This document shows, in pieces, positions 1 through 64,000 of a stretch of 64,000 bases of DNA. Position numbers and translations under genes: made by a program. The notes under the pieces are model-generated. The model was not told where the DNA came from. It did no database searches and saw nothing but the letters and a program-made list of their open reading frames with translations. Within the stretch, counting starts at the first letter, position 1; each line of letters opens with the position of its first letter. This DNA comes from a virus. The DNA is taken from positions 41,405 to 105,404 of the IMG/VR virus record IMGVR_UViG_3300025087_000641; one strand, given 5' to 3'.

Positions 1-129
1 TTGGGAGCAATGCTCGGCACTATTCTAAAGATGCCCATTGAAATGCATGAGGCCATCAGATTCAAGAATTGCGGGTACGCCAATGTCAAGTTCATAAATG
101 GAAAGGCAAGGTTGATAACATTACAATGA
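1..129 (+). CDS. C-terminal fragment of an upstream gene, possibly histidine phosphatase family
   Basis: Open frame from position 1 (LGAMLGTILKMPIEMHEAIRFKNCGYANVKFINGKARLITLQ*). The F-x-NCG-x-x-x-V-x-F ending resembles phosphoglycerate-mutase-like C-termini. Truncated by the window edge. Confidence 0.4.
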   Translation: MGAMLGTILKMPIEMHEAIRFKNCGYANVKFINGKARLITLQ

Positions 130-256: not shown

Positions 257-1003
257 ATGAAACTCCCAGACCTCTATCTCAATGTAGACACCGTTCACGG
301 TCTTGGTCACAAGATGCGAACATGGGCAATTGCCGAGGAGTATCTGAGACAAGGTGGTGCTGTTCATTGGCAATGGGATAAACTGCCAGATGAGATGAGT
401 GTAACCATCTTTGATGGATACAACTATACCAACCATGACAGAGAGCGGTGGATGTCTGCGGGACATTTAGTGGTGACGCTGGATGACTTTGCGAGGGCAG
501 ATTTTACAACTCACATTCTAATCAACTACAATTATGGTGCTGAGAAATTGCCGTGTTTCAAGATGTCAGGGATGAAGATTCCGGGCATATCAATTTTTCT
601 TCTCGGAACTAAATACTTCCCGCTGAGAGAGGATTATAAAAAACTCACAAGCGTTGATGGGGGACATTCATTTGATACAGACTCGGTTGGCAGGCAAATG
701 CCTCCAGCGCAATTCGCAAAGAATATGGCAGAGGCCTCATATGTGCTATCTTCGGCAGGGGGGACAGTTTATGAAATCATGTATCTGTGCAAACCAATGC
801 TTCTGCGGAAGGCGAACAGTACACAAGGGGTAACATACAACAATGTCATCCGTGATGGGTTGGCACTTCCAGATACACAAGAGAACAGAGAGATGATGAA
901 AAATCCATATCATCGGGATAGATATGTGTCCTATTTGCAAGGGCTAGTTGACGGGAATGGCGCAAGTCGGATTGTGGAGGAAATAAGCCATGTGGTCGGG
1001 TAA
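257..1003 (+). CDS. PseG/SpsG-like nucleotide-sugar hydrolase (GT-B fold)
   Basis: HGLGHKMRTWAIAE, LLGTKYFPLREDY, SSAGGTVYE..KP and LVDGNGASRIVE motifs typical of PseG; shortened. Confidence 0.75.
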   Translation: MKLPDLYLNVDTVHGLGHKMRTWAIAEEYLRQGGAVHWQWDKLPDEMSVTIFDGYNYTNHDRERWMSAGHLVVTLDDFARADFTTHILINYNYGAEKLPCFKMSGMKIPGISIFLLGTKYFPLREDYKKLTSVDGGHSFDTDSVGRQMPPAQFAKNMAEASYVLSSAGGTVYEIMYLCKPMLLRKANSTQGVTYNNVIRDGLALPDTQENREMMKNPYHRDRYVSYLQGLVDGNGASRIVEEISHVVG

Positions 1004-1889
1004 AAAGGTCTTGGTTACTGGTGGTGCTGGTGTAATTGGCAGAGTCCTTGTCCAGAAACTAGAGGAGCGTGGTGCTAAAGTTGTCTCTATTGACCGCGAG
1101 CCTGCTAAATTTGAGAAGGCTACCCATTATACAGATAATGTCTTGGGGCACATGCTCACATGCGAGGAACAGCAAATAGTATTCCATCTGGCGGCATCAT
1201 TCGGCAGGACTGAAATAGAGCCACAATTCTTCAATGAGAATTTCTACAACAATGCTGGATTGACGCATACGCTCCTGTCTTGCGAGCATCATTGGGAGAA
1301 GTTCATATTTGCGTCGTCGTATTTAGTCTATGACCCATTACTCTATCTTTGGGACGACACCCATTTCCTTAAAGAGTCTGATAGAATTGCACCACGAAAC
1401 ATGGTTGGCGCGGCGAAGTATTATACCGAGAACGAGTTAGACTTTGTATGTCAAGATGAGAAGATGTCTGGAGTCTCTGCGCGTATCTTCCGGGTATATG
1501 GCAGAGGGGCAAAAGATATTATCTCAAGAGTCGTTCAGAAAGCATTGAGGGGTGAGACAATTGAGGTGTATGGCGAGAATGCCAGATTTGACTACATCTT
1601 TGCTGACGACGTGGCAGAGGGATTGATAAAACTTGCAGAGGTTGATTTCCCAACAACCGCTGTAAATCTCGGAACTGGCAAGGGAAAGAGTCTGTCGGAA
1701 GTCATTGCAGTTATCCGAGAGCATATACCAAATATGAAAGTTGAACATGCCGAGAAATTTGGACACCCCATAGAGAACAGCAGGGCAGATGTATCTCTTC
1801 TGAGAGAGTTGACGGGATGGACTCCGCCAACGCCACTAGAGGTCGGGATACGAAAGGTAATAGAGTATGAAAGAGAGAAAAGCAGTTGA
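990..1889 (+). CDS. NAD-dependent sugar epimerase/dehydratase
   Basis: VLVTGGAGVIG, FHLAA, FASS, RIFRVYG, DYIFADDVA, NLGTGKG. Confidence 0.9.
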   Translation: MWSGKKVLVTGGAGVIGRVLVQKLEERGAKVVSIDREPAKFEKATHYTDNVLGHMLTCEEQQIVFHLAASFGRTEIEPQFFNENFYNNAGLTHTLLSCEHHWEKFIFASSYLVYDPLLYLWDDTHFLKESDRIAPRNMVGAAKYYTENELDFVCQDEKMSGVSARIFRVYGRGAKDIISRVVQKALRGETIEVYGENARFDYIFADDVAEGLIKLAEVDFPTTAVNLGTGKGKSLSEVIAVIREHIPNMKVEHAEKFGHPIENSRADVSLLRELTGWTPPTPLEVGIRKVIEYEREKSS

Positions 1890-2211
1890 CAAAGTTAATA
1901 TGGGATTTACTTCTAGACTGGCATGGGGATTATTTTCAAGAATAGAGAGTCCGGGATTTGGCGCATGTGAACGATGTGGAATGTCATGGGCTATAGTTAA
2001 TGGACACGCCACTTATGTAGCAGGTGGTTTTGGAATATTCCCGCTATGCTTGGAATGCAAATTGGAATTATCGCCAGAGGAGCGATTGCCATATTATCTT
2101 GCTCTCTATAAACGTTGGCCTACAATGCAATCACATTATTCCATTGATGAACTTACACAAGCGGTTTTGAATGAGGTTGTAGATGAGCGAGAATTGGAAA
2201 GTTGTTCTTGA
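1867..2211 (+). CDS. Hypothetical protein with two CxxC motifs
   Basis: CERC...CLEC; overlaps both neighbours in the operon. Confidence 0.6.
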   Translation: MKERKAVDKVNMGFTSRLAWGLFSRIESPGFGACERCGMSWAIVNGHATYVAGGFGIFPLCLECKLELSPEERLPYYLALYKRWPTMQSHYSIDELTQAVLNEVVDERELESCS

Positions 2212-3106
2212 CCCACTCGGTTATTACCGACTCGACCCGATCCCGCAGGTAGCGGACTATTATCGAAAGGGATACCACGAGGCATCTGGCATGAATCGTG
2301 CGCCTGATATGCGCCGTGCCATTGACGGTGGTGCGGAATACGATAGAGAGAAGTTCTGGCTGTCCTCGACTCTGTGGAATGACATTTTAGAGATTGGGAT
2401 TCTATGCCTCCATCAATGGACAAAGGGGTATCACTTTCTGGATTACGGATGTGGAGTCGGTGATTTGTGCGTATACATGAGAGACTTCGGATGGGAAGTA
2501 GAGGGAGTGGAACCATCTGTGCTCGCATCAGGGATTGCCAAAAAGCACGGGGTGAATATTCACAAAGACCTGTCAACCGTCAAGGGATATGACATCATTT
2601 CTGCTATCAATGTCTTAGAGCATGTCCCCGATCCTCAAAAGACTATTTTAGAACTTAGGTCACATCTCACCGAAGGAGGTGTACTTGTTATTCAGACTCC
2701 GAATGACTTCTCGCCACTCCAGTCTGTTGTCAAAACAAAGGCAATGGGAAAGGATTATTGGGTTGCTTATCCAGACCATATCAACTACTTCAACTTCGAC
2801 TCTCTAACAAAGTTACTTGAGCATTGTGGTATGAGAGTCGTCTATCGGATGGCGACATTTCCTATGGAGTGGTTCGTACTCCTGGGTGACAATTACGTTC
2901 TCAATCGGGAGTTTGGCCCACGATGCCATAACAAGAGAATTGAGTTTGATTTATCCCTGCCAACTGAATACAGGCGCTCGCTCTATACTAAACTGGCAGA
3001 GATAGGATGGGGAAGGTCTTGCATATTGTTTGCAATAGACGCTAGTTACACAATGCCACAGATGAGACACGCTTTTGAGTGGATGAGAACAGAGGTCAAA
3101 GCGTGA
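2183..3106 (+). CDS. Class I SAM-dependent methyltransferase (glycan-cluster type)
   Basis: FLDYGCGVG, GVEPS, NVLEHVPDP, GGVLVIQTPN, HINYF. Confidence 0.88.
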   Translation: MSENWKVVLDPLGYYRLDPIPQVADYYRKGYHEASGMNRAPDMRRAIDGGAEYDREKFWLSSTLWNDILEIGILCLHQWTKGYHFLDYGCGVGDLCVYMRDFGWEVEGVEPSVLASGIAKKHGVNIHKDLSTVKGYDIISAINVLEHVPDPQKTILELRSHLTEGGVLVIQTPNDFSPLQSVVKTKAMGKDYWVAYPDHINYFNFDSLTKLLEHCGMRVVYRMATFPMEWFVLLGDNYVLNREFGPRCHNKRIEFDLSLPTEYRRSLYTKLAEIGWGRSCILFAIDASYTMPQMRHAFEWMRTEVKA

Positions 3107-3672
3107 AGGTCTTGTTTTTGGGCAACCCCAACTCGCCACTTGTGGAGTATCTTATTGGGACTGGTGAGAAAGTCATAGTCACATGGGACAAGATTGACCC
3201 ACAGACCATTGAAACCTATAAGCCAGATTTTCTTGTGAGTTATGGGTATCGCCACATCCTCCGCGAAAATGTGTTGAATATGTTGCCCGACAGGGCAGTG
3301 AATCTACATATCGCATTCCTCCCCTGGAATCGGGGTGCAGACCCGAACTTTTGGAGTTTCGCGGAGCATACGCCAAAGGGTGTTACAATTCATTATCTTG
3401 ACAAGGGTGTTGATACTGGTGACATCATAGCGCAGAGATGTGTTATGCCATTCCCCCATGACACATTCAAGACGAGTTACTATAGACTCCAATATGAAAT
3501 ACAAAAGTTATTCAAAGAGAACTGGGCAGAAATCAGAATTGGGGCATGTAATAGGAGCAAGCAGGGCAGACTTTGCACATTCCACCATTCAAAGGACAAG
3601 AATAGATTGATGCATATGCTGACAGATGGATGGGATACTCCTATATCTGTGTTTGACGGGTATGAAGAATGA
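3103..3672 (+). CDS. Sugar N-formyltransferase (Fmt-like)
   Basis: VSYGYRHIL, NLHIAFLPWNRGADP, GVTIHYLDKGVDTGDII; GTG start overlapping the upstream stop. Confidence 0.88.
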   Translation: MKVLFLGNPNSPLVEYLIGTGEKVIVTWDKIDPQTIETYKPDFLVSYGYRHILRENVLNMLPDRAVNLHIAFLPWNRGADPNFWSFAEHTPKGVTIHYLDKGVDTGDIIAQRCVMPFPHDTFKTSYYRLQYEIQKLFKENWAEIRIGACNRSKQGRLCTFHHSKDKNRLMHMLTDGWDTPISVFDGYEE

Positions 3673-4664
3673 ACGCGCTAAACATTCTTATAACCAGTGC
3701 CTCGCGCAAGGTGTCTCTTGTCAAGTCGTTTCAGCAGGCATTGAAGGAAGAGGGACTCGGCGGATTTGTTGTGGCGGCAGATTCCTCGCCAGACAGCGCC
3801 TCAATGCAGCTCGCGGATATGGGTGCAATTGTCCCGACACTTCCCAACAATGGAACAGATTACGAGTTCTTCAAAAGCATTGCTGAAATATGTATCCAGA
3901 TGGGGATAGGCCTCGTTGTTCCAACTAGGGATGGAGAATTGCCGTTCTTTTCTGAACACAAAGAATTCTTTGCCGAACAGGGTATATTTGTCGCCATACC
4001 AGACTCCGAGTGTGTAAGATTATGCCAAGATAAATTGGCATTCTGTGATTTCTGCGTTTCAAATAACTTCTCTGTGCCGCAGAAGATTGATGACGTAACG
4101 CGATTGCCAGTCTTTGTAAAAGCGCGAAATGGGCATGGTGGCAACTCTGCGGCGAGGGCTGATACACTGCCGGAATTATTTGCACTCAGGCGAAGATATG
4201 GGGAGTCCATAACCCAAGAGAATATCAATGCACCAGAGTACACTATTGATGTGTTCTCAGATTCTAACTCAAAGGTATTGAGTGTTGTGCCTCGCCAGCG
4301 CATCAAGATCATGGGTGGAGAGTCTTGGGTAGGCAGGACAGAGAAGAATGCCGACATCATGCGAGAGAGTCAAAGACTAGCAGAGGCATTGAAACTAAAG
4401 TATCACAGTGTTATCCAGTGCTTCTATGACAATGGGATTGTCAAATTCATTGAGGTCAATCCTCGCTTTGGAGGGGCAAGTAATTGCAGTTTTGTGGCGG
4501 GTGCTAATAGTCCTCGCTGGCTAGTTCAATTGGCAACTGGCAGAGATGTAACAGCGCCCCCAATTGGGGACTTTCTGGACAATTTGACGATGTTAAGGTA
4601 TAGTCAAGATACATTTGTTTATCCAGAGACGAACGATGAAACAAGACCCGAAAGGCCCGTTTGA
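3669..4664 (+). CDS. ATP-grasp ligase (CarB-like short form)
   Basis: ILITSASR, VPTRDGEL, DKL, PVFVKARNGHG, EYTID, IEVNPRFGG. Confidence 0.88.
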   Translation: MNALNILITSASRKVSLVKSFQQALKEEGLGGFVVAADSSPDSASMQLADMGAIVPTLPNNGTDYEFFKSIAEICIQMGIGLVVPTRDGELPFFSEHKEFFAEQGIFVAIPDSECVRLCQDKLAFCDFCVSNNFSVPQKIDDVTRLPVFVKARNGHGGNSAARADTLPELFALRRRYGESITQENINAPEYTIDVFSDSNSKVLSVVPRQRIKIMGGESWVGRTEKNADIMRESQRLAEALKLKYHSVIQCFYDNGIVKFIEVNPRFGGASNCSFVAGANSPRWLVQLATGRDVTAPPIGDFLDNLTMLRYSQDTFVYPETNDETRPERPV

Positions 4665-4770
4665 TAAATTGGAAGACGACATCAGGCTATCAATCATTGC
4701 GTATATCGCCAGACTCATTCTGCTTCTTATAGGTTTTTCAATCTTTGTGAGGTTGTTCCCGCCAAAATGA
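4636..4770 (+). CDS. Small single-TM protein (44 aa)
   Basis: MKQDPKGPFDKLEDDIRLSIIAYIARLILLLIGFSIFVRLFPPK; stop overlaps the gmhA ATG (ATGA). Confidence 0.5.
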   Translation: MKQDPKGPFDKLEDDIRLSIIAYIARLILLLIGFSIFVRLFPPK

Positions 4771-5336
4771 AACGTCAAAATATAATAGAGTCGTCGCTAA
4801 AAGACTCTGCAACAGCGATGCTCTCTCTAATTCCCATAGTTCCATTTTTAGACAAATTTGCACAATCGGTTATAGAGACGTTTGACTCCGGAAACAAGAT
4901 TATCGTCATTGGCAATGGCGGGAGTGCGGCGGACGCGCAACATTTTGCAACAGAGATGGTGGTGAGATATAAAAAAACTGGAATTGCGCTTCCCGCGATT
5001 GCACTGACGACTGATACAAGCATTCTGACAGCGACAGGAAACGACATCAACTTTGACCAGATATTTGCGAGGCAAGTTGAGGCGCTTGGCAGACGAGGCG
5101 ATATGCTGTTAGCGATAAGCACAAGCGGAAACTCGCGTAACATTCTGAGGGCAGTTGAGGTTGCAAAGAATCTGAGTCTGTTCTGTGTGGCATTGACTGG
5201 CAAAACTGGGGGGCGGTTATCGCAACTCTGCCACATGGTAATCAAAGTACCGCAGAATGCCACAAGTCGTATTCAAGAGGCGCATATTGCCATCTTACAT
5301 GCGGTATGCGAGGTGGTAGAAAGCCAGAAAAGATGA
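4767..5336 (+). CDS. gmhA: Phosphoheptose isomerase (SIS domain)
   Basis: GNGGSAADAQHFA, ALTTDTSILTA.GND, FARQVEALG, ISTSGNS, RIQEAHI. Confidence 0.92.
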   Translation: MKRQNIIESSLKDSATAMLSLIPIVPFLDKFAQSVIETFDSGNKIIVIGNGGSAADAQHFATEMVVRYKKTGIALPAIALTTDTSILTATGNDINFDQIFARQVEALGRRGDMLLAISTSGNSRNILRAVEVAKNLSLFCVALTGKTGGRLSQLCHMVIKVPQNATSRIQEAHIAILHAVCEVVESQKR

Positions 5337-5449
5337 GACGGATGCTGATTGAACTCATCATTTGGTTGATATTGGCGATTATCATAATTGTTGGCATTGG
5401 ACTCTTTGGTTGGGACACATGCGGCGGTCTGGTTTGGTGGTGCATATGA
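5333..5449 (+). CDS. Small single-TM protein (38 aa)
   Basis: MRRMLIELIIWLILAIIIIVGIGLFGWDTCGGLVWWCI; ATGA overlaps at both ends. Confidence 0.55.
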   Translation: MRRMLIELIIWLILAIIIIVGIGLFGWDTCGGLVWWCI

Positions 5450-6267
5450 GTCTCGGAATAATGCAGGGACGCCTTGTCCCACCAATAGATGGCAAACTAC
5501 AGGCATTCCCCACAAATGGGTGGAACAAAGAACTAGAGATATGTCGAGGATTGGACGTTGCATATATTGAGTGGATTTATGATGGCGAGGACTTATACTT
5601 TTTGCCAAATCCAATCTCAACATTTGAGGGTGCAAATGCGCTGAGTGGGATACAGTCTCCTCGTATCGCGTCTCTGTGTGCTGATTACTTTGTGAAAGCG
5701 CCACTGCTGAGAGTGCCAGGGAATATTCTAGAACAGAGAATAGCAAAACTCAGATGGCTGGTTTTTCAATGCAGTCTTGCAAATATTCCCACTCTTGTTC
5801 TCCCATTTGTGGACGATAACGCGATTCGCACACACGGCGAAATTGATGATGTCATTTGTATTCTCTATGAACTTTCTGGATTAATTGACGCCTGTAATGT
5901 CAGGATTGCGCTAGAAACAAATCTTGACGAATGTGATATGCAGACTCTTTCGCGTGAATTGGTAGATGTGTTTGTTGGAATAAATTACGACTCTGGAAAT
6001 AGTGCATCGCTTGGTTATGATGTTGAAAAAGAATGGAATATGTATGGACATCGCATTGTCAATGTCCACATCAAAGATAGAGTCCTAAAGGGTAGCAGTG
6101 TGCCACTTGGCGAGGGCAGTACCAATTTTGATACACTGGCAAAGATGCTGTCTAAATTCAATTATCGCGGCAATGTAGTCTTACAGGTGGCGCGGGGAGA
6201 GTCGGGCAAAGAAGTTGAGTGGTATCACAAGAACAGGAACTTCCTGCTTGACAAGGGCATCGGATGA
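5446..6267 (+). CDS. Sugar-phosphate isomerase/epimerase, xylose-isomerase-like TIM barrel (UlaE-like)
   Basis: GIMQGRL, IEWI, ALET, INYDSGN, VHIKDR, VPLGEGSTNF; start moved to MSLGIMQG. Confidence 0.85.
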   Translation: MSLGIMQGRLVPPIDGKLQAFPTNGWNKELEICRGLDVAYIEWIYDGEDLYFLPNPISTFEGANALSGIQSPRIASLCADYFVKAPLLRVPGNILEQRIAKLRWLVFQCSLANIPTLVLPFVDDNAIRTHGEIDDVICILYELSGLIDACNVRIALETNLDECDMQTLSRELVDVFVGINYDSGNSASLGYDVEKEWNMYGHRIVNVHIKDRVLKGSSVPLGEGSTNFDTLAKMLSKFNYRGNVVLQVARGESGKEVEWYHKNRNFLLDKGIG

Positions 6268-6392
6268 ATACATTTGGGGCAGACTTCATCATCGTCTTTG
6301 TAGCATTAGTGCTGGCATGTTCAATCGGCGCATTTGTGAAACTTGTCCATGATGTTGTAAAAGGCAATAATGATTCCGCAAAGTCGTCATAG
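6264..6392 (+). CDS. Small single-TM protein (42 aa)
   Basis: MNTFGADFIIVFVALVLACSIGAFVKLVHDVVKGNNDSAKSS; ATGA overlap with the upstream stop. Confidence 0.5.
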   Translation: MNTFGADFIIVFVALVLACSIGAFVKLVHDVVKGNNDSAKSS

Positions 6393-7452
6393 CATCACCC
6401 GCGAGGACATCAAATTTGTTGGCAAGGCTCTTGCTGGCGACTTTCTGACTCGCGGGCCATTGACACTTGAGTTTGAGGCAAAGATAGCCGAATTGTGTGG
6501 CAAGAAGTATTGTGTCACAATGGCAAATGGGACAGTCGCCCTCCATGCCGCGCTATTGGCCTGCAATGCGAAGCATGTAGTCTCTCCAACTCTGACATTC
6601 TCTGCTATCGCCAACGCTACACACTTCGCTGGTGCTAAACTCTATCTCACAGATGTAGACTCATATAAACTCCATGCCACAACGTACAGCCAACCCCTTC
6701 CCGCGAAAGGGCTTGTTTTCGTTCCGATGGACTACGCTGGTCTGCCTTATAATCTGGACTCTTCTGGATTGGGGGCTGGCTATACTACTGTCATCCGTGA
6801 TGCGTGCCACTCATTTGGGGCAACGATTAATGGAGAGTCGCATGTCAAGCGCGATGATATGGCCGTCTTTAGTTTTCATGCTATAAAGACAATATCATCT
6901 GGAGAGGGGGGATGTGTCGTAACCGATGGCGAAGAATACGCCACAGAACTTCGGAGAATACGGAACAACGGACTAGAGAATCATCAACAGCATCGGTTTG
7001 GATTGAACTACCACATGAGCGAAATTGAGGTAGCACTTGGATTATCGCAGTTGAAACGACTTGACAAGATATTGGAGAGACGAAGAGAACTGGCAAGTAA
7101 GTATATTGAGCATTGGGCAGGACAATACGACAGAATTACTTTGCCCGCCGACGATAATGGTCATGCCTATCATCTATTCGTTATCCGCCTTGCCGACTCT
7201 GTAAAAATAAAACGAGACACATTCCGAAGAGAACTTGCCGATATGGGCATTGGAACACAAGTCAACTATCGCCCCCTCCACAGACAACCCATTGTGGCGT
7301 CAGTAATTGACTCTGCGCTCACTGAGTTTCCGAACGCTGATTGGGCATGGGAACGAATGCTGAGTATCCCACTATACTATGGATTGACAGACAATGAACA
7401 GAAGGTGGTCATGAAAGCCATAGATAGACTGTTGGATAAACATGCCAAATAA
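6370..7452 (+). CDS. DegT/DnrJ PLP-dependent sugar aminotransferase (PseC-like)
   Basis: LTRGP..EFE, NGTVALH, DACHSFGA, FSFHAIKTISSGEGG, GLNYHMSEI, HAYHLFVI, LSIPLY. Confidence 0.92.
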   Translation: MIPQSRHSITREDIKFVGKALAGDFLTRGPLTLEFEAKIAELCGKKYCVTMANGTVALHAALLACNAKHVVSPTLTFSAIANATHFAGAKLYLTDVDSYKLHATTYSQPLPAKGLVFVPMDYAGLPYNLDSSGLGAGYTTVIRDACHSFGATINGESHVKRDDMAVFSFHAIKTISSGEGGCVVTDGEEYATELRRIRNNGLENHQQHRFGLNYHMSEIEVALGLSQLKRLDKILERRRELASKYIEHWAGQYDRITLPADDNGHAYHLFVIRLADSVKIKRDTFRRELADMGIGTQVNYRPLHRQPIVASVIDSALTEFPNADWAWERMLSIPLYYGLTDNEQKVVMKAIDRLLDKHAK

Positions 7453-8242
7453 TCTATTTGACCTCACTGGCAAGGTGGCGATCATAACTGGCGGGGCAGG
7501 ATTGCTTGGGCAACAGCACGCCGAGGCAATTGCGGCATTCGGCGGATGTCCGGTGATTCTGGACATTGATTATGATGCGGCCAGAAACATTATCAAGGAA
7601 ATCGGCGTGGGGTTTGCGTTTGAATGTAATGTGACGCGCCCCCAAGATATTTATGATACGTTGAATGAAACACTTACGCTACGCGGGCATGTGGATATTC
7701 TCATCAACAATCTCTCTTGTAATGCCAATGTTGAATCTTTGGGACAATATTCACGCCTTGAATTCTATCCATATTCACAATGGGCAAAGGACTTGGAACT
7801 CGGATTGGGAAGTGCATTCCTATGTAGTAAAATAATTGGCAGTCACATGGCAGACAAAGGCAAGGGGGTGATTGTCAACATCGCCTCAGACCTCTCCGTG
7901 ATAGCGCCAGATCAGAGGCTCTATCACAAAGAAGGACTTGCTGATGAGGAGCAGCCCAAAAAACCAATTTCTTATTCTGCAATAAAGCATGGTATTATTG
8001 GGTTAACTCGCTACCTTGCGACATATTGGGCGGGTAGAGTTAGGGTAAATGCCATAAGTCCTGGTGGAATATTTAATAATCAGCCAGATGATTTTGTGCG
8101 ACATATTAGCGACAGAATCCCAATGGGGCGCATGGCACGGGCAAATGAAATACAGGGAACATTGGTCTTTCTATGTTCTGATGCGTCATCATATATGACT
8201 GGGCAAAATATTATTGTGGATGGCGGAAGGAGTATTTGGTAA
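7442..8242 (+). CDS. SDR oxidoreductase (PtmA/flagellin-modification-like)
   Basis: TGGAGLLG, DILINN, YSAIK (YxxxK), RVNAISPGG, SSYMTGQNIIVDGG. Confidence 0.9.
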   Translation: MPNNLFDLTGKVAIITGGAGLLGQQHAEAIAAFGGCPVILDIDYDAARNIIKEIGVGFAFECNVTRPQDIYDTLNETLTLRGHVDILINNLSCNANVESLGQYSRLEFYPYSQWAKDLELGLGSAFLCSKIIGSHMADKGKGVIVNIASDLSVIAPDQRLYHKEGLADEEQPKKPISYSAIKHGIIGLTRYLATYWAGRVRVNAISPGGIFNNQPDDFVRHISDRIPMGRMARANEIQGTLVFLCSDASSYMTGQNIIVDGGRSIW

Positions 8243-8742
8243 TGAGGAAAATAGAATTATCAAGAGGATATACTTCTGACATTGATGATGAGGATTATGA
8301 ATGGGTATCCCAATACAAATGGAATGTTTCACTGTGTAACCATACCCAATATGCTTATAGATATTCTTACAAGCCGAATGGGACTGGGGCGAAGAAATAC
8401 ATGCACCGCGAGATAATGGAAAGATATAACGGGGCATTAGGGAGTGGTATGCAGATAGACCATATAAATCACGATGGACTGAACAACAGGAAAACAAATC
8501 TTAGGATATGTACCCAGTCCCAAAACAATTGGAACGGGAGGGGGATTTTGGAGGGAACCTCAAAATACAAGGGAGTATACTTTTACAAAAGTCGCGGGAA
8601 ATGGGTTGCACAAATGTGCCTTTTCGGGAAGCGCATTTTCATTGGTAGATTCGACAGCGAAATTGATGCGGCAAGAGCATATGACAGAGTAGCAAAAGAA
8701 AAGTATGGAGAATTTGCGAAACTGAACTTCCCGGAGGAATAA
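8236..8742 (+). CDS. HNH-AP2 homing endonuclease
   Basis: YMHREIM, IDHINHDGLNNRKTNLR (HNH); SKYKGV...W.A....IGRF..EIDAARAYD (AP2). Confidence 0.92.
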   Translation: MVMRKIELSRGYTSDIDDEDYEWVSQYKWNVSLCNHTQYAYRYSYKPNGTGAKKYMHREIMERYNGALGSGMQIDHINHDGLNNRKTNLRICTQSQNNWNGRGILEGTSKYKGVYFYKSRGKWVAQMCLFGKRIFIGRFDSEIDAARAYDRVAKEKYGEFAKLNFPEE

Positions 8743-9539
8743 TGACGATGGATTTATTGGCTTCTAATTTATTCTCCGTGGCGGGGAAGACAGCCCTTGT
8801 CACTGGGGCAAATGGTTATTTAGGACAAGTGGTGGCAGGAGTCCTTAAACAGAATGGTGCAAGTGTTATTGGGACTTATGCAACAAAAATCCCAACAGAT
8901 GGATTCTGTGATGAGTGGTATCTGATTGATTCAAATTCGCCATATCCAGACTTGGAAGAAAGATTGCGCGAAATTGAATCTAATAACCAAATAGATGTCC
9001 TTATCAACAACGCGCATCCCATGAAACGCGAGGCTGGATTCAATGTTGAGACAGACCAAATAGAACACTATTCACGGGCAGAATGGCAACAGAACATCAA
9101 TGGCGCTATTGGACTCCCGGCACTCACAACATCAATCATTGGGGCGGGGATGAAAGATAGAGGGCATGGTAGTATTATCAACATCAGTAGCATGTACGCC
9201 CTCGTTGCCCCCCATCCAAATTTGTACAAAGATACGCTATACATGAATCCGCCCGGATATGGGGCAAGCAAGGCGGCTCTACTTGAGTTTACTCGCTATG
9301 TGGCGGCATTCTGGGGACAGTATGGAGTGCGGTGTAATGCCCTGTGTCTTGGCCCATTCCCGAAATCAATTACACCAGAGATGCAAGAGTTCATCACGCG
9401 GTTGAACTCGCGCACTTGTCTTAATAGAACTGGCAGGGCAGGGGAGATAGCTGGAGCAATTCTATTTCTGGCGAGTGAGGCATCGTCATACATGACGGGC
9501 CATGCCCTAGTCCTCGATGCTGGATGGTGTGCCACATGA
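8742..9539 (+). CDS. SDR oxidoreductase (second paralogue)
   Basis: TGANGYLG, DVLINNA, YGASK, SSYMTGHALVLDAGW. Confidence 0.9.
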   Translation: MTMDLLASNLFSVAGKTALVTGANGYLGQVVAGVLKQNGASVIGTYATKIPTDGFCDEWYLIDSNSPYPDLEERLREIESNNQIDVLINNAHPMKREAGFNVETDQIEHYSRAEWQQNINGAIGLPALTTSIIGAGMKDRGHGSIINISSMYALVAPHPNLYKDTLYMNPPGYGASKAALLEFTRYVAAFWGQYGVRCNALCLGPFPKSITPEMQEFITRLNSRTCLNRTGRAGEIAGAILFLASEASSYMTGHALVLDAGWCAT

Positions 9540-9709
9540 CTTTTCCGAAGTCCCCCAATGTGCCATTTGTCCAATCGGTTATCTTTGTCATGTCTCATGT
9601 TGGCTATCCATATTGGGATGATGTGGTTTTGAATCCAACCAGTGCTAAGGCGCTTGGTCTAAAACTTATTGAATACGCAGGCGAATGGATAGAGGAAAAG
9701 CGTGACTAA
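9536..9709 (+). CDS. Small hypothetical protein
   Basis: ATGA-coupled to the SDR stop; fills the gap to the TylF gene. Confidence 0.5.
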   Translation: MTFPKSPNVPFVQSVIFVMSHVGYPYWDDVVLNPTSAKALGLKLIEYAGEWIEEKRD

Positions 9710-10559
9710 TCCCTGTGTCCATTGCAACGAGAATGAGTCAGACTTTGACACATACCTCTGCAAGAAATGTGCCGAGGACTTTCAGGTTACACCACAAACA
9801 ACGAGGGATTTCTATGGCTTTCTGGCTAGAACGGGAAGGTCGTATCTAACATCGTATTTGTCAAGGCCAGACCAAGAACAGGGGAAGCCTCACGATTATA
9901 TCTTTGCCGCGCCTGCCGCAAGTTTTCACCACGCTAGACGATTCAATTTCTTTACTCGCATGGCAGAACTTGTGCGAGGTGTTCCGGGGGACATTGTGGA
10001 GTGTGGCGTAGAACATGGGCAGACATTACTATATTGGCTATCCATTGCATTTGACGAATTGACGCCACGAAATGTATGGGGATTTGACTCTTTCGCCGGG
10101 CCAGAAACAGTTGGAGAGAAAGATAAGAATTCTAATGGCGACATATATCCGCCCCTTCCGAATGTCTATGCTAGGGCAACCGAGGGATTTATCAATCTCC
10201 TGAATGCCTATGGACTTCCTCGTATTTGGACGAACTCACATTTAGTCGTCATACCCGGCTTTTTCTCTGAGACTCTGAAAGATTATAGGGGCGAGAAGAT
10301 AGCGATTCTTCACCTTGACGCGAACTACTACGACAGTTACAAAACTTGTATGGAGATGCTGTGGCCGAAAGTGGCCCGTGGTGGAGTTGTAATTTTTGAT
10401 GAATACCAAAATCAAAATGATACTCTACACTTTGCTGGTGCAAAACGCGCAATAGACGAATATATGGAAACACTCAAGGATGACGGAACGACAATCACGA
10501 GGGACAAAATGTATGGCAAATTCTATTGCATCAAGGGAGGCATTCAATGGCGGATTTAG
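9702..10559 (+). CDS. TylF/MycF/NovP-family O-methyltransferase with N-terminal Cys-rich extension
   Basis: PGDIVECGV, WGFDSFAG, GFFSETL, IAILHLDANYYDS, GGVVIFDEY, GAKRAIDEY. Confidence 0.9.
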   Translation: MTNPCVHCNENESDFDTYLCKKCAEDFQVTPQTTRDFYGFLARTGRSYLTSYLSRPDQEQGKPHDYIFAAPAASFHHARRFNFFTRMAELVRGVPGDIVECGVEHGQTLLYWLSIAFDELTPRNVWGFDSFAGPETVGEKDKNSNGDIYPPLPNVYARATEGFINLLNAYGLPRIWTNSHLVVIPGFFSETLKDYRGEKIAILHLDANYYDSYKTCMEMLWPKVARGGVVIFDEYQNQNDTLHFAGAKRAIDEYMETLKDDGTTITRDKMYGKFYCIKGGIQWRI

Positions 10560-11431
10560 TTATCGGCGGTAGCCCAATTGGGGACGGACACCCAGTAATT
10601 TGTATAGGAGAGGAGGGTATAAATCATCAGGGCAATATAGATATTGCCAAGAAACTTGTTGATGTTTGTATTGAGGCAGGTTGCAATGCTGTCAAGATGC
10701 AATCTCGTACAGTTGATGTAGTTTATTCGGAAGAGGAACTTTCCAGGCCGAGAGAGTCGCCCTTTGGAACAACAAATGGAGACTTGAAACGCGGTCTTGA
10801 ATTGGGGAGGAAAGAATATGACGAATTTGATGCTTACTGCAAATCAAAGAGTATGACATGGCTTTCCTCATGTTGGGATGAAGCGTCTGTTGATTTTATT
10901 GCACAATACAACCCACCATGTTTCAAGATTGCCTCTGCCTGTATCACGGATGATAACCTGCTAAGACATCATCTACAATATCATAAGCCACTCATTATCA
11001 GTACGGGGATGACAACTTTGCGCCAAATTGACCATGCCATTGAAATTGTCGGGACTGACAATGTTGCCCTAATGCATTGCATTGGAGTTTATCCGGCTGA
11101 TCCGAGGACTCTAAACCTTCGTGTTATCCAAACACTGAAAGAGCGGTATAATGTTCCCGTTGGATGGAGCGGACATGAAGTAGGACTCGCTACAACCGTT
11201 GCGGCTGTGGCGATGGGTGCAAATCTTGTTGAGAGGCATGTCACATTGGATAGGGCAATGTTCGGCTCAGATCAGTCGGCCTCGGTAGAACCCCAGGGAT
11301 TGAAAAGACTTGTCAGGGATATTCGGGTTGTTGAAGATGCAATGGGGGATGGCGTAAAACGAGTATTGCCTGCCGAGTCTGTTGTGGCAAATAAGTTGCG
11401 CCGTGTTGACACTCTGAAACAGGAGGGGTGA
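10547..11431 (+). CDS. neuB: NeuB-family PEP-dependent ulosonic acid synthase, lacking the C-terminal SAF/AFP domain
   Basis: EEGINHQG, AVKMQ, FKIASA, ISTGM, MHCIGVYP, GWSGHE, ERHVTLDR..GSDQSAS. Confidence 0.9.
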   Translation: MADLVIGGSPIGDGHPVICIGEEGINHQGNIDIAKKLVDVCIEAGCNAVKMQSRTVDVVYSEEELSRPRESPFGTTNGDLKRGLELGRKEYDEFDAYCKSKSMTWLSSCWDEASVDFIAQYNPPCFKIASACITDDNLLRHHLQYHKPLIISTGMTTLRQIDHAIEIVGTDNVALMHCIGVYPADPRTLNLRVIQTLKERYNVPVGWSGHEVGLATTVAAVAMGANLVERHVTLDRAMFGSDQSASVEPQGLKRLVRDIRVVEDAMGDGVKRVLPAESVVANKLRRVDTLKQEG

Positions 11432-11865
11432 TGACTGGGCGACCAGATCTGACGTTTCAGATTTCCGAGAGTGACAATGAGGTTTATGATGTCATGCGGG
11501 ATTTGGCACAACGACTTGGCCTGACCGAGTTACGGACGAGTCCCATGACGATGGTGAGTTGGACTGCGCCCGCGCCAATTGTAGAAACTCCTCCACCATC
11601 CAATCCTCAACCATCTCGAAATGCCCCATACAAGTTGGCAACACGAGTGCCAACACGCATTCAGTTTGTTGGAGAAGTCAATTGCTGGGTTGCGCCAGAC
11701 CCAAATTCGCGCAAGTTGACTTTTACTGACAATCGGGAGGTGGACATCTTCGAGGAGAGAGATACCGAGTTGTTTGGAAAGTGGTGGTGCGTACTCCATA
11801 AAACATTGCCGAGTGGTGAACTGTTTGAATTATGGATTCCGGCTGCGTATTTTGTTCTGTTCTGA
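11428..11865 (+). CDS. Hypothetical protein with Pro-rich linker
   Basis: Coupled ORF within the operon; no recognised motif. Confidence 0.6.
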   Translation: MMTGRPDLTFQISESDNEVYDVMRDLAQRLGLTELRTSPMTMVSWTAPAPIVETPPPSNPQPSRNAPYKLATRVPTRIQFVGEVNCWVAPDPNSRKLTFTDNREVDIFEERDTELFGKWWCVLHKTLPSGELFELWIPAAYFVLF

Positions 11866-11869
11866 AAAG

Positions 11870-12394
11870 ATGATTAAGGTCGCAATATTCGATACCGATG
11901 GAGTTATGTCCGATGGCGCAGTAATCTACCTCGATGGTGGGGTGCGAGGCAGAGTCTTCAATGTCAGAGATGGACAAGGGATTACCAATCTAAAGCACGC
12001 CGAGGTATCTGTCTGGCTAGTCAGTGGCGAACAAGACTCTCATCTGTTTGACCGTTCCGAGAAGTTGGGCGTAGACCAATTGTTTGGATTGCCAGACAAA
12101 CGCAGAGTCCTAGAGGAACTTCCGCTTGACATAAACAACGACGAAATAGCATTCATGGGTGATGACATTGGGGACATTCCGCTGCTGATGATGGTGGGTA
12201 TGCCTGCGTGCCCACAGGACGCTCACCGTGACGTTGTGAACTGCGTTGTTAGTCTACGTGGGTTTGTCGCCACAAAAAATGGCGGCAAGGGGGCAGTACG
12301 AGAGTTCTGCGACTATATATTGACAAGAAACAGACTCGATACTGCCCCAGAGTATATGCGAGAGATTGGAGAGTTGAAAAACGCATTGGAATAG
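11870..12394 (+). CDS. KdsC/YrbI-like HAD phosphatase
   Basis: IFDTDGVMSDG, FNVRDGQGI, AFMGDDIGD, GGKGAVREF. Confidence 0.9.
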   Translation: MIKVAIFDTDGVMSDGAVIYLDGGVRGRVFNVRDGQGITNLKHAEVSVWLVSGEQDSHLFDRSEKLGVDQLFGLPDKRRVLEELPLDINNDEIAFMGDDIGDIPLLMMVGMPACPQDAHRDVVNCVVSLRGFVATKNGGKGAVREFCDYILTRNRLDTAPEYMREIGELKNALE

Positions 12395-24573: not shown

Positions 24574-25356
24574 ATGGCTAAAAGTTCTTTGGGTAAAAAG
24601 CGCGGTATTCACACTTGCAATGTGTGTGGCGTAAAATTTAAGAGATGGTGTGATGCGCCAATACTCTTGATATGTGAGGACTGTTATTTAATAACTATAC
24701 CATGTGAACAATGTGGAGAACCTGCAAGGAAATATACAAAAGTTGCTAGGCCAAGAAGATTCTGTGACAGCAAGTGCAGGCAGACATATATTGCTAGAAA
24801 GACAGCACAAACTAGGGGCGAAACAACAAGGCAAAAACACAAAACAGACCAAGTTTACCACGAAAAGATGTCTGCAATTTTAAGGTCTGTTCATCATCTT
24901 TCACAAACGAAAGAGAATTTTGAGGCAATATCTAAAAGTCTCAAGAAGAGATGGAAAAATAAAGATTATAGGGAATATATGTCGGCAATGTCGCGTCGGA
25001 TTTGGGAAGACAGGGATAAAATGCTGAATTCCGTAAAGTGGCATCCAACTAAAATGACAAATCTAGAAAGGAAAATTGATGAAATTATATCGGAATGGGG
25101 AATTACATATCACTTAAATTATATGGTCGGGAGATACTTTATAGATTTTGCATTCCCAGAACATATGATTGGCATAGAATGTGATGGGGAATATTGGCAT
25201 CGTAACACAAGGGAAAGAGAAGCCAAGCGTGATGCTTGGCTCTCATCTTGTGGTTGGACAATTATTAGACTCTCTGAAAACGAGATTGAAAATTGTCCCG
25301 TTTGGACACTTGCCACAAAGGTGGTTCCCCTTATAGAGAATTGTTCTAATCCCTAG
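24574..25356 (+). CDS. Zn-finger plus DUF559/Vsr-like endonuclease, antisense
   Basis: CxxC repeats; YFIDFAFPEHMIGIECDGEYWH, RDAWL..GWTIIRL. Confidence 0.85.
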   Translation: MAKSSLGKKRGIHTCNVCGVKFKRWCDAPILLICEDCYLITIPCEQCGEPARKYTKVARPRRFCDSKCRQTYIARKTAQTRGETTRQKHKTDQVYHEKMSAILRSVHHLSQTKENFEAISKSLKKRWKNKDYREYMSAMSRRIWEDRDKMLNSVKWHPTKMTNLERKIDEIISEWGITYHLNYMVGRYFIDFAFPEHMIGIECDGEYWHRNTREREAKRDAWLSSCGWTIIRLSENEIENCPVWTLATKVVPLIENCSNP

Positions 25357-26735
25357 AGTACCCCCGTGCCCAGACTCCTCCCCGGAACTCCACTAAGCAA
25401 CTGGAAACTGAATGGAAAGTTATCATTTCTAACAACTCGGTAATTCCCAGTCAGAACCCATGCACCATTGCTATCAGCAACACTCACATTTTCAATATAG
25501 GCAGGCACGGAAGCACTCAATTGCATATTGGAAGCACCGATTCGCCAGGGTGTAGAATATAACCAATGCATCTGAATCTCGCTGGCGTTCTTCCACTTCT
25601 GATACTCAAGTTCATTGTTTAACAGAAGGGTAATGTTGCCAGTATATTCAGTTGCACCGAAGAATGAACCCTGTGGGCCTTGCACGCCAGCAGCGGCACG
25701 ATAGTTGCGGTTGCCAGTTGAGATAGTCATGTCGCCGTTCTGCATCACATCCCACTGAGTCCCGTTGTCGCGTCTCACGCGCAATCCCCACGCGGGCCAG
25801 ATGCGAAGTGGGGATGGAGAATGGAGAGTCGTTTCCGCACTAGACCCAGTTGGTTCGCCCTCAAAGTCAGCGGTTACATTGAAGATACCATCAACTGCCT
25901 CGGAGTCGGCAGTAAGAGTTAGACTCTTTAGAACCATCCCCGTATGCATAAAGGAGAGGTTGGCAGATGCCTCGCCAGCAGTCGGGTTATTGAGTCTCTC
26001 GAATGCGAGAGTTGGCGCTGAGGAGTTGACCGTAAAAGTGTGCAACCAGTGTTTGATTGCAGAGACACTGACAACGCCCGTAGATGCTCCAGAGATAGAG
26101 ATACCAGAGGCCGCGATAGAAGACCATGCAGTTCTGGTATAGGCAACTACTGATTGGGCAGACCCAAACGAGATTTGTTCACTCGCGCCATTACCATACG
26201 AGTCGATGCCACTGATGGAGATAGTACCAGCGGGAATACCACCCGACAGTTGGATTTGTAGAATCTTTCCGCCCGATTCTGGTTGATTGTTGAGAACAAG
26301 GGCTTTTGGGTCTGCGTTTAGAGGTTCATTTCCCCGCAGAAGTTGTGGCGCTGATGCTTGCGGAATCATGTCCGTAGAAGCACCACCCATCGCCGCATAC
26401 AGAAGTACACCCAAGAAGTCGGGGATGACGGGTGCAGAGAATCCGCCCTCTGACCAAGTACGTCCCTGCACTGGCGGTTGCTGATTGATGCGCCTATCGC
26501 CTGCATGTCCAGCGGGAAAGATAGTTGCTCGTTGTTCTTGCAGGGAGGGCAAGTCATCGGTAATCATGTTGTGCCACATGCCCCCCTCCCACCATGCCTT
26601 TCCGAGGTGGGCCGCAAGTCCAGTGGCGTAAGCACCCGCACTCGGCGCAACACCACGATTCCACGCTGGTGTGGCGGCCTGATTCACCTCAACAGAAATT
26701 TTGAGTCCCTGATTAAAAGTTGAACTGATTGCCAT
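25353..26735 (-). CDS. Major tail tube protein with inserted beta domain
   Basis: Follows the tail terminator; HTFT..PTLAFER..G.VLKSLTLT..FNVTADFEG pattern of siphoviral tubes. Confidence 0.72.
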   Translation of the reverse strand: MAISSTFNQGLKISVEVNQAATPAWNRGVAPSAGAYATGLAAHLGKAWWEGGMWHNMITDDLPSLQEQRATIFPAGHAGDRRINQQPPVQGRTWSEGGFSAPVIPDFLGVLLYAAMGGASTDMIPQASAPQLLRGNEPLNADPKALVLNNQPESGGKILQIQLSGGIPAGTISISGIDSYGNGASEQISFGSAQSVVAYTRTAWSSIAASGISISGASTGVVSVSAIKHWLHTFTVNSSAPTLAFERLNNPTAGEASANLSFMHTGMVLKSLTLTADSEAVDGIFNVTADFEGEPTGSSAETTLHSPSPLRIWPAWGLRVRRDNGTQWDVMQNGDMTISTGNRNYRAAAGVQGPQGSFFGATEYTGNITLLLNNELEYQKWKNASEIQMHWLYSTPWRIGASNMQLSASVPAYIENVSVADSNGAWVLTGNYRVVRNDNFPFSFQLLSGVPGRSLGTGVL

Positions 26736-37021: not shown

Positions 37022-37501
37022 TTACCCCGGTGCGCCAGTTGAAGAACTTGCCGCAGTCTTCCACACACTCCCAGAAGTGCCATCAGAGTCATTCCAGTAC
37101 ATAGCACTCATACTTCCATCAGAACGCAAGAAGATTGACCCCGGCGATGCAGCATGAGTCGGGATATTCCGGCCTGTACCAACAGTTGGGGCACGAGTCC
37201 CATCCGTGATCCTGAAAGTTCCAGCATCGTTGGTAGTAACATTCACATTCATAGATGCGCCAACGGCAAGCAAGATTGCACCACCCGCAACTTGAGTCTG
37301 TGAGGCTTGCCCGAAAGTCACGCCACCGCTGAAGTTCAGAAGACCAGAAGCCGCGATATTCGCGCCACTGGGTAGGCTTAGATTCGCACCAGAGGCGATA
37401 GTCAACAATCCGCCAGCATCAACATTGATACTTCCACCACTGGCAACAGTTAGAACGCTTGCACCCTGTTCGCGGATAAGACGCCCACTATACGTTGTCA
37501 T
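37022..37501 (-). CDS. Head fibre/decoration-like protein
   Basis: VASGGSINVDAGG repeats; PTHAASPGSIFLRSDG..YWN..W motif. Confidence 0.62.
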   Translation of the reverse strand: MTTYSGRLIREQGASVLTVASGGSINVDAGGLLTIASGANLSLPSGANIAASGLLNFSGGVTFGQASQTQVAGGAILLAVGASMNVNVTTNDAGTFRITDGTRAPTVGTGRNIPTHAASPGSIFLRSDGSMSAMYWNDSDGTSGSVWKTAASSSTGAPG

Positions 37502-37521
37502 TTGTTTAGTCTCCTATCCGC

Positions 37522-37950: not shown

Positions 37951-37958
37951 TTTGTCTC

Positions 37959-63912: not shown

Positions 63913-63916
63913 AGGG

Positions 63917-64000
63917 GTCTATCCGAGAACTAGTGGCTTTTGCCAGAAGATGCAACAGATCGCCACAGAAGCGACAAGACCCACTAGTTCTCGGATAGAC
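63917..64000. repeat. Perfect 20-bp inverted repeat
   Basis: GTCTATCCGAGAACTAGTGG (63917-63936) / CCACTAGTTCTCGGATAGAC (63981-64000); may extend beyond the window. Confidence 0.85.

Follow-up and report, generated by a model that had tools for sequence, protein, structure and literature searches.

A tailed-phage genome region predicted to make a pseudaminic-type sugar and a second ulosonic acid

Nonulosonic acids, pseudaminic acid (Pse) among them, influence the recognition of bacterial surfaces by immune systems, by lectins and by phages. In the bacterial formyl-variant pathway to cytidine monophosphate (CMP)-activated pseudaminic acid, PseB, PseC, PseJ (replacing PseH), PseG, PseI and PseF give the 5-acetamido-7-formamido form, Pse5Ac7Fo; PseJ completes the route to this sugar, and PseF accepts it (PMC11040635). 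The 3-deoxy-D-manno-octulosonic acid (Kdo) route (KdsD, KdsA, KdsC and KdsB) and the 2-keto-3-deoxynononic acid (Kdn) route of Bacteroides thetaiotaomicron (Kdn-9-P synthase and phosphatase) share a logic of sugar-phosphate isomerase, phosphoenolpyruvate (PEP)-condensing synthase, KdsC-family HAD phosphatase and cytidylyltransferase. In Tannerella forsythia, capping of the O-glycan with its terminal Pse derivative requires the glycosyltransferase Tanf_01245 (also TFUB4_00887, and BFO_1060 in strain 92A2), a function known from genetic evidence only (PMC5420450). Among phages, the EpaA/EpaB prophages of Acinetobacter baumannii carry two genes, a cytidylyltransferase-reductase fusion and a short-chain dehydrogenase (SDR), with which these temperate phages edit the host-made Pse of the capsule (PMC12053666). 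Here we describe a predicted sugar-making and glycosylation region in the virus record IMGVR_UViG_3300025087_000641 of IMG/VR. The window analysed is the 64,000 nucleotides from position 41,405 (window position 1) to 105,404 of that record.

The window holds the downstream half of what its gene content suggests is a phage-owned glycosylation region of ~32 kb (G000:C1 ~21.9-53.8 kb, where G000:C1 marks record coordinates) composed of soluble cytoplasmic enzymes, and about a quarter of this 105-kb tailed-phage genome is devoted to soluble sugar enzymes. Between window positions 257 and 12394 there are 17 tightly packed open reading frames (ORFs) on the + strand, most of whose starts overlap the preceding stop, with gaps of no more than ~100 nt (Table 1). 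Pfam and NCBIfam searches recover each of the 13 enzyme classes named in a first-pass annotation of this DNA, and the small ORFs and HNH-AP2 gene that it placed among them are also there, three of the small ORFs being without any family match. It had further suggested that missing enzymes might lie upstream, and we found them at 0.1-19 kb in that direction: PseB, a PseF-like cytidylyltransferase, a GNAT protein, a second NeuB-type synthase (NeuB1; that of the window is NeuB2), GT2 and GT4 glycosyltransferases, and two BFO_1060-like GT-B proteins of 441 and 416 aa. Virion genes follow on the - strand from 12418 (tape measure, pectate-lyase-like tail spike, major capsid, portal and large terminase). 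A scan of the cluster for promoters and terminators gave background level only.

These enzymes had been read as one near-complete pathway; the enzymes stand, although not as a single converging route, and they are better described as two modules. Our best overall explanation, which we regard as an even bet, is that two acid-making modules and a set of tailoring enzymes supply transferases that act on a cytoplasmic protein acceptor. Which genes are present, that they reside in a phage, how far they are conserved and that the second module came from bacteria is shown by the data; the exact products, the order of the enzymes and the acceptor are what we infer below.

The cluster belongs to the phage. 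The record is a single 105,404-bp contig, of which the window is the final 64 kb, and its labelling as linear in IMG/VR (CheckV completeness 85%), the bacterial type of its enzymes and the 64% identity of NeuB2 to a Chloroflexus gene could suggest that the cluster is bacterial chromosome beside a prophage, or a mis-assembly, and no phage trait. This explanation is already contradicted, and we regard it as extremely improbable. Bases 1-126 of the record are repeated at 105257-105382 (within window positions 63853-64000, G000:C1:105257-105404), a circular assembly overlap from which it follows that the contig closes as a circle of ~105.26 kb. Beyond the repeat there are only the final 22 nt of the contig, an inverted copy of bases 62-81 that looks like a typical assembly-end artefact and masks the circularity for end-repeat detectors. 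Phage genes flank the cluster on both sides, no tyrosine or serine recombinase is present in the genome, and selfish elements (HNH-AP2, LAGLIDADG and TnpB genes) are scattered through the cluster. Its codon use is in line with the rest of the genome (r = 0.92, compared with 0.945 for random halves of the rest), and its GC content also matches. Moreover, a 99%-complete relative, the IMG/VR contig G001 (99,998 bp; CheckV 99%), carries this cluster at the corresponding position, where it converges on the tail genes with the same layout across the 12.4-kb junction. The circular overlap, the lack of an integrase, the codon match and the G001 layout thus bear out the phage residency proposed in the first-pass annotation, and argue against a host chromosome flank joined to a prophage at an attachment site or coverage break near 12.4 kb.

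Two other phage lineages share with this phage parts of the core module, together with the transferase block, at ~30-55% protein identity, which points to selection rather than to a passing passenger gene set. G001 has 49 of 173 ORFs in common with this phage, with 55%, 50% and 58% identity in the capsid, portal and terminase proteins. Its cluster runs in the order two nonulosonic acid (NulO)-transferase-like genes, GT2, GT4, PseB, PD40, PseC, cytidylyltransferase, PseJ, PseG-like and two NeuB genes, with a 206-aa protein encoded between the two GT-B proteins. The PseG-like and PseC proteins are 35% and 41% identical to ours, and a formyltransferase orthologue also lies in the core cluster. 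G001 lacks the GmhA-like, TIM-barrel, SDR1, SDR2 and KdsC-like genes, and has only a divergent second NeuB. The third lineage is represented by four short contigs (L013-L016) in which the transferase block, followed by PseB, PseC, cytidylyltransferase and NeuB1, lies beside the portal gene; PseB is seen in two of the four, PseC, cytidylyltransferase and NeuB1 in L016 only, and PD40 in none. The formyltransferase and the PseG-like protein are found, of these two lineages, in G001 only. We note that in G001, as in this phage, the PD40 protein keeps its place between PseB and PseC. No nucleotide-level relatives were found among GenBank phages, a portal-based search of IMG/VR gave two short contigs only, and the capsid relatives are distant phages of gut Firmicutes (33-37% identity over part of the protein).

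The core module resembles the bacterial formyl-variant pathway in having the same six enzyme classes, with the PseG-like protein and NeuB1 as candidates for the PseG and PseI steps. PseB has TIGR03589 as its top match (333 bits; equivalog cut-off 407), compared with 206 bits for FnlA and 66 for LegB, and the PseC-type aminotransferase matches TIGR03588 best (275 bits; cut-off 423), compared with 143 for LegC. The best solved match of the formyltransferase is PseJ (6CI4/6CI2), over its full length and at 188 bits (E = 1e-54), and this close homology sharpens the pseudaminic-type chemistry that had been proposed from the window and that the other genes support. The GNAT protein is not specifically PseH-like, its best solved match being a spermidine acetyltransferase (E = 2e-4). 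The PseG-like protein, at 248 aa, is ~35 residues shorter than PseG and matches TIGR03590 weakly (50 bits; cut-off 154). Its family profile ranks Campylobacter jejuni PseG (3HBM) first among solved structures (E = 6e-7), the invariant GxGH motif being aligned, and an AlphaFold2 model (pLDDT 78) has a small MurG/PseG-like GT-B fold, for which a fold search placed PseG only at rank 20 among GT-B proteins. The cytidylyltransferase has the PseF model TIGR03584 as its top match (101 bits; cut-off 206; profile positions 1-219 of 222). On the NeuB and PseI models, NeuB1 reaches 178 and 158 bits, respectively, in both cases under cut-off, and solved PseI ranks seventh among its matches; its position in the conserved core speaks for the PseI role. 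Neither scores on hidden Markov models nor solved structures gave an assignment of NeuB1 or NeuB2 to the Pse, legionaminic (Leg) or neuraminic (Neu) class.

In the route that we propose, host UDP-GlcNAc would be acted on by PseB (4,6-dehydratase/5-epimerase) and then by PseC (4-aminotransferase), the PseJ-type enzyme would formylate the new amine, with GNAT perhaps giving an acetyl alternative, and the PseG-like hydrolase would remove UDP. NeuB1 would then join the sugar to PEP, and the PseF-like cytidylyltransferase would give the most likely product of the core, a CMP-5-acetamido-7-formamido-pseudaminic-type acid. The differences from the bacterial pathway are that these genes are carried by a phage, that the members are divergent and below equivalog cut-offs, that the PseG-like protein is shortened, that the synthase lacks the SAF domain, and that the cluster is broken up by homing endonucleases and a TnpB gene.

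The second module consists of NeuB2, the KdsC-like phosphatase, the GmhA-like isomerase, the TIM-barrel enzyme, SDR1 and SDR2, and is a widespread bacterial cassette that has been imported. NeuB2 covers the NeuB profile only at positions 2-275 of 329, and is 24% identical to NeuB1, 36% to the second NeuB of G001, and up to 64% to genes of Chloroflexota, Nitrospirota, Planctomycetota, Myxococcota, Acidobacteriota, Melainabacteria and bacteria of the candidate phyla radiation. We compared 80 bacterial loci with NeuB2 relatives (48-64% identity), screening the neighbouring genes for homologues of the phage genes. A KdsC gene stands beside the NeuB2 relative at 54 of these loci, a cytidylyltransferase at 36, SDR1 at 27 (identity up to 58%, median 51%) and the TIM-barrel gene at 14, as well as at the viral locus L004, and GmhA lies within 10 kb at 22 (35-57% identity); several loci have the whole cassette. 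SDR2 is 42-46% identical to the product of a second SDR gene adjoining SDR1 in three of the bacterial loci (L036, L037 and L056). The order in a Chloroflexus locus is TagF-like, cytidylyltransferase, cytidylyltransferase-HAD fusion, NeuB2, TIM barrel, GFO/IDH oxidoreductase, SDR1, GmhA, second NeuB, KpsS-like and GT2. No characterised example of a NeuB2/KdsC/GmhA/TIM/SDR cassette was found.

This cassette should run through a phosphorylated intermediate in the style of the Kdo and Kdn routes, judging from its enzyme families. The KdsC-like phosphatase scores 106.9 bits on TIGR01670 (cut-off 106.95) and 98 bits on the KDN-9-P phosphatase model. Although its ORF was listed from a TTG codon, the gene most likely starts at the ATG at 11870, because HAD motif I (DxDG) comes directly after it; DxDG and GDxxxD are both intact downstream of this codon. 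NeuB2 probably uses a phosphorylated sugar, since it lacks the SAF domain and is linked to a phosphatase. The GmhA-like isomerase, the TIM-barrel enzyme and the two SDRs would thus shape a sugar phosphate, SAF-less NeuB2 would condense it with PEP to a phosphorylated ulosonic acid, and the KdsC-like phosphatase would release the free sugar. The logic is the same as in the Kdo and Kdn routes, although the synthase is a SAF-less NeuB and not KdsA, the isomerase is GmhA-like, and a TIM-barrel enzyme and two SDRs are added. An analogy of the GmhA-like gene with PtmF, taken as a SIS-domain isomerase pairing with PtmA, was dropped, since PtmF is described in the literature as a 326-aa oxidoreductase. 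We also note that in a Terracidiphilus (Acidobacteriota) locus a thiamine-diphosphate enzyme lies inside the NeuB2/KdsC/TIM/SDR/GmhA cassette (L056:11457-13277), and that the phage has no such gene.

The Methyltransf_23 enzyme, ATP-grasp ligase, TylF, extra epimerase, GNAT and histidine phosphatase have no counterparts in G001 and occur rarely in the bacterial loci, TylF being found beside the cassette in only one of the 80. They look like tailoring enzymes gathered by the phage, and the methyltransferase, the ATP-grasp ligase, TylF and the extra epimerase may decorate one or both of the sugars.

The 441-aa protein matches the BFO_1060 model NF046086 from end to end (positions 2-364 of 365; 127 bits, E = 1e-36), albeit under the cut-off of 200 bits, and reaches 105 bits (cut-off 125) on the 'surface carbohydrate biosynthesis' model TIGR04396; a language-model look-up returned BFO_1060-type families and TagF-like enzymes. 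It resembles the Tannerella transferases in length, in its TagB/TagF-like GT-B fold, in the HP motif and in adjoining a Pse pathway, and differs from them in its sub-threshold score, in having a paralogue and in keeping the D/E-D/E-G motif only in part. The paralogue is the 416-aa protein (hhalign 95%; 49 bits on NF046086). Under the sialyltransferase motif definitions of PMC5420450, neither paralogue family varies in the HP motif (KPHPxE and HPFE) or in an EG motif, and the acidic D/E-D/E-G motif is partly kept (EPEG and QEG). Neither protein matches a PHROG family; in searches with the 416-aa protein and the 441-aa paralogue family, single-protein patterns gave no matches, and profile scans gave ~six contigs. 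We suggest that GT2 and GT4 build a short glycan, which the two GT-B proteins may cap with the CMP-activated acids.

A different role can be considered for the 416-aa protein, as a NeuC/LegG-like hydrolysing 2-epimerase. It would then supply a 2-acetamido-mannose-type sugar to the second NeuB, and the conserved core would yield a neuraminic- or legionaminic-type acid besides the pseudaminic one. A structural model (pLDDT 93) is about as close to NeuC-type hydrolysing epimerases (Z = 26) as to TagF, TarL and capsule polymerases (Z = 22-23). NeuC and UDP-GlcNAc 2-epimerases are its best structural matches (Foldseek E = 6e-15, TM 0.6-0.68; VIA Z = 26.2), and its profile also matches epimerases (E = 5e-8). 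Pfam Epimerase_2 gives a sub-threshold match, with PF02350 precomputed on many homologues, and the role would account for two NeuB genes in both this phage and G001. However, the only NCBIfam models to match at E = 0.001 are BFO_1060 and 'surface carbohydrate biosynthesis', with no NeuC or epimerase model among them, the best sequence-profile match is TarL (E = 2e-10), and TagF aligns at Z = 23.2 with a lower root-mean-square deviation. The protein is also the paralogue of a clearer BFO_1060-type protein, and its invariant HP motif is shared with sialyltransferases and the Tannerella enzymes. We treat both GT-B proteins as candidate capping transferases, and consider the epimerase role somewhat unlikely.

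For the acceptor, we put a phage protein glycosylated in the cytoplasm, probably on the virion, at close to an even chance; it would most probably be a virion protein. No membrane segments are predicted in the enzymes or transferases, no Wzx/Wzy-type polytopic protein, flippase, polymerase or ligase is recognised in the region, and the genome has no match to a Maf (MptE-like, PF01973) transferase at E <= 0.1. A virion target is favoured by the retention of the system in apparently lytic phages, by the portal gene adjoining the block in L013-L016, by three small Gly-, Ser- and Thr-rich proteins encoded beside the capsid gene, and by the precedent of mycobacteriophage virions. In mycobacteriophages, the sugar donors reportedly come from the host, and the glycosylated sites lie in C-terminal tails, rich in Ser and Thr, of the capsid and tail-tube subunits. 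Glycosylation of these subunits with the phages' own transferases is described in PMC12619734 (citing Freeman 2023); the likeness lies in soluble glycosyltransferases encoded near virion genes, with a cytoplasmic protein target plausible. In contrast, the phage described here would make its own acidic donors, and its capsid protein has no Ser/Thr-rich tail of that kind, so that the likeness is a working analogy and not membership.

The first-pass annotation had described many structural proteins as Ser/Thr-rich. This holds mildly for small head-proximal proteins (22-25% Ser+Thr, with a genome mean of 13%), although low-complexity tracts, which we had considered as glycosylation sites, were not found, and the argument for virion glycosylation from Ser/Thr content is weak. 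Just downstream of the capsid gene, three small Gly-rich proteins of 159, 142 and 141 aa have this composition; two are clear paralogues, all three have counterparts in G001, and a short C-terminal stretch rich in Ser and Thr is present in the 159-aa protein only. We regard the three as candidates for head decoration and as possible acceptors of the sugars, as are the capsid protein and a 460-aa protein at 25353-26735. Separately, the major capsid protein has an N-terminal coiled-coil region of ~100 aa with a high content of Lys, Glu and Ala that resembles a fused scaffold, and its database relatives align only from ~residue 180.

Several points weigh against two acids being made and placed on a cytoplasmic protein. 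All of the Pse enzymes score below their equivalog cut-offs, which leaves the stereochemistry of their product uncertain; neither NeuB is PseI-specific, both scoring higher on the NeuB than on the PseI model and both lacking the SAF domain; there is one cytidylyltransferase only for two putative acids; the 416-aa protein is structurally as near to NeuC-type epimerases as to TagF and may be an epimerase; and the capsid lacks the mycobacteriophage type of tail noted above. Furthermore, the T. forsythia transferase acts on a glycan that is later exported and not directly on protein, so remodelling of the host surface fits this part of the evidence equally well. In such remodelling, the acceptor of the phage acids at the cytoplasmic face would be an undecaprenyl-linked glycan of the host (O-antigen, an O-glycan of S-layer or general type, or a polymer resembling teichoic acid), which host flippases and ligases would then display, and the changed surface would block superinfection or keep progeny off debris. 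Tanf_01245/BFO_1060, the only studied relatives of the two GT-B proteins, act in the assembly of an exported O-glycan, the GT-B proteins have a TagF/TarL-like fold, and GT2 has weak GtrB-like PHROG matches. There are also pointers to the envelope in the membrane-anchored PD40 protein conserved within the cluster, and in a 378-aa GT-C-like protein with ~10-12 predicted membrane segments encoded elsewhere in the genome beside an RtcB RNA ligase. This protein, for which a language-model look-up returned GT-C/GT87-type membrane glycosyltransferases, has no match in Pfam, PHROGs or G001, and might link the sugars to the host envelope. The EpaA/EpaB prophages are a precedent for phage-borne enzymes acting on Pse, in their case by remodelling of the Acinetobacter capsule, although here there are a full predicted de novo pathway and transferases in a phage without an integrase.

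Other observations fit host-surface remodelling poorly. Since no integrase is found, lysogenic conversion is unlikely, and more than 25 genes would be a big investment for a lytic cycle. The cluster has no recognised flippase, polymerase or ligase, GT2 lacks the GtrB membrane anchor, the GT-C-like gene is 20 kb away and absent from G001, and in L013-L016 the block lies in the head module. On this evidence we judge remodelling of the host surface to be rather unlikely, though a serious alternative to a virion protein acceptor. Modification of the phage DNA, a further purpose that had been raised for the sugars, is very unlikely. Sugars would be placed on phage bases against restriction, as in phages with glucosylated or arabinosylated hydroxymethylcytosine, and a DNA N6/N4 methylase gene does lie between GT2 and GT4. 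DNA-hypermodifying phage glycosyltransferases are well known (bioRxiv 10.1101/2023.12.21.572611), but that report makes no mention of nonulosonic acids, and the transferases here are like glycan-capping enzymes and unlike DNA glucosyltransferases. No thymidylate-synthase-like hydroxymethylase, Tet/JBP dioxygenase or C5 methylase is present in the genome, and there is thus no route to a hydroxymethyl base that could be glycosylated.

Taking acceptor and donors together, we tentatively propose that a lytic lineage coats its own particle with self-made acidic nine-carbon sugars, a formyl-pseudaminic acid and, from the bacterial cassette, a ulosonic acid that is methylated, aminoacylated or both. 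The sugars would probably sit on small proteins of the head surface, added by a capping family not in PHROGs. This is possible, though on balance doubtful; if true, it would be the first report of a bacteriophage virion coated with a sialic-acid-like sugar. Among 50,697 deposited phage records, three have NeuB homologues, of which two are clearly viral, and the pathway looks rare in sequenced phages. A literature search, from which most subscription journals were excluded, turned up Pse-editing prophage enzymes and many phages with the ability to bind Pse or to cleave it, and no description of de novo nonulosonate synthesis encoded by a phage. Each of the enzyme families is known; what is new is their combination and their setting in a phage. 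The making and attachment of such sugars by a phage would add to known phage abilities, and may mask, charge or stabilise the virion or remodel the host surface. The phage also provides a soluble enzyme set predicted to make CMP-Pse5Ac7Fo and tailored derivatives, and a handle on a bacterial cassette (SAF-less NeuB, KdsC, GmhA, TIM, SDR) present in many phyla.

Table 1. Features of the glycosylation region and related genes. Positions are in window coordinates unless prefixed G000:C1 (record coordinates).
Feature	Position	Strand	Matches and remarks
441-aa GT-B protein	G000:C1:22562-23887		BFO_1060 model
416-aa GT-B protein	G000:C1:26348-27598		paralogue of 441-aa protein
GT2	G000:C1:28389-29642
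DNA N6/N4 methylase	G000:C1:29943-30767		between GT2 and GT4
GT4	G000:C1:31428-32558
PseB	G000:C1:33454-34470		PF02719, E = 1e-77
DUF5131 (phage Gp37/Gp68) protein	G000:C1:34495-35301		weak 'radical SAM mobile pair protein A' match
Membrane-anchored PD40 protein, 179 aa	G000:C1:35511-36050		N-terminal anchor and PD40 (TolB-like) repeat
PseF-like cytidylyltransferase	G000:C1:36504-37214		PF02348, E = 1e-19
TnpB, IS605-type	G000:C1:37247-38431		OrfB_IS605 and Cas12f-like TNB domain
GNAT	G000:C1:38564-39046
LAGLIDADG endonuclease	G000:C1:39024-39851
NeuB1 (second NeuB)	G000:C1:39817-40731
Histidine phosphatase (His_Phos_1), 3' end	1..129 (full gene G000:C1:40955-41533)	+	PF00300, E = 5e-52
PseG-like minimal GT-B protein, candidate UDP-sugar hydrolase	257..1003	+	TIGR03590, E = 3e-13, partial match
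Extended-SDR NAD-dependent epimerase/dehydratase, possible tailoring or second branch	990..1889	+	PF01370, E = 9e-29; best NCBIfam generic heptose epimerase (66 bits) and GalE (62 bits), both far under cut-off
Small Cys-rich ORF, 114 aa	1867..2211	+	no match in Pfam, PHROGs, NCBIfam
Class I S-adenosylmethionine methyltransferase (Methyltransf_23), candidate N-/O-methylase of sugar or its acyl group	2183..3106	+	PF13489, E = 1e-27
PseJ-type sugar N-formyltransferase	3079..3672	+	formyltransferase family, E = 8e-19; solved PseJ, E = 1e-54
ATP-grasp ligase, candidate aminoacyl/acyl ligase on sugar amine	3669..4664	+	PRK12767, 237 bits, E = 2e-70; PylC-like N domain and ATPgrasp_Ter; solved match 2PN1, E = 6e-27
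GmhA-like SIS sugar-phosphate isomerase	4767..5336	+	E = 3e-57; TIGR00441, 193 bits (cut-off 209)
Xylose-isomerase-like TIM-barrel sugar(-phosphate) isomerase/epimerase	5362..6267	+	PF01261, E = 4e-12
PseC-type pyridoxal phosphate aminotransferase	6370..7452	+	PF01041, E = 1e-75; TIGR03588 top match
SDR1, PtmA-like short-chain dehydrogenase	7442..8242	+	PRK09186, 164 bits; FlagModPtmA, 103 bits
HNH-AP2 homing endonuclease, selfish insert between SDR1 and SDR2	8236..8742	+	PF13392, E = 8e-13; PF00847, E = 4e-10
SDR2, short-chain dehydrogenase	8742..9539	+	PF13561, E = 2e-29
Small ORF, 61 aa	9524..9709	+	no family match (Pfam, PHROGs)
TylF-family O-methyltransferase	9702..10559	+	PF05711, E = 3e-23
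NeuB2, ulosonic-acid synthase without C-terminal SAF domain	10526..11431	+	PF03102, E = 2e-74
ORF, 145 aa	11428..11865	+	no family match (Pfam, PHROGs, NCBIfam)
KdsC/Kdn-9-P-phosphatase-like HAD phosphatase	11870..12394 (ORF listed from TTG 11774)	+	E = 9e-31; TIGR01670
Three small Gly-rich proteins (159, 142, 141 aa)	37022-38384	-	22-25% Ser+Thr
Major capsid protein	38453-39940	-
378-aa GT-C-like protein	G000:C1:1592-2728		12 transmembrane segments, GT-C/GT87-like

A gene for an Mgm101/Rad52-like annealing protein lies just upstream of the glycosylation region (L002:1-1308). The DUF5131 gene is inserted directly 3' of PseB and has no counterpart in the G001 cluster. The TnpB gene immediately follows that of the cytidylyltransferase, which appears intact, the whole PseF profile being covered. 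A copy of the HNH-AP2 protein with 46% identity is encoded elsewhere in G001. Four classes of homing endonuclease occur in the glycosylation clusters at differing positions, HNH-AP2 and LAGLIDADG in this phage and GIY-YIG and HNH in G001 (L020:1792-2601 and L020:5743-6906), which suggests repeated independent invasions of the region.

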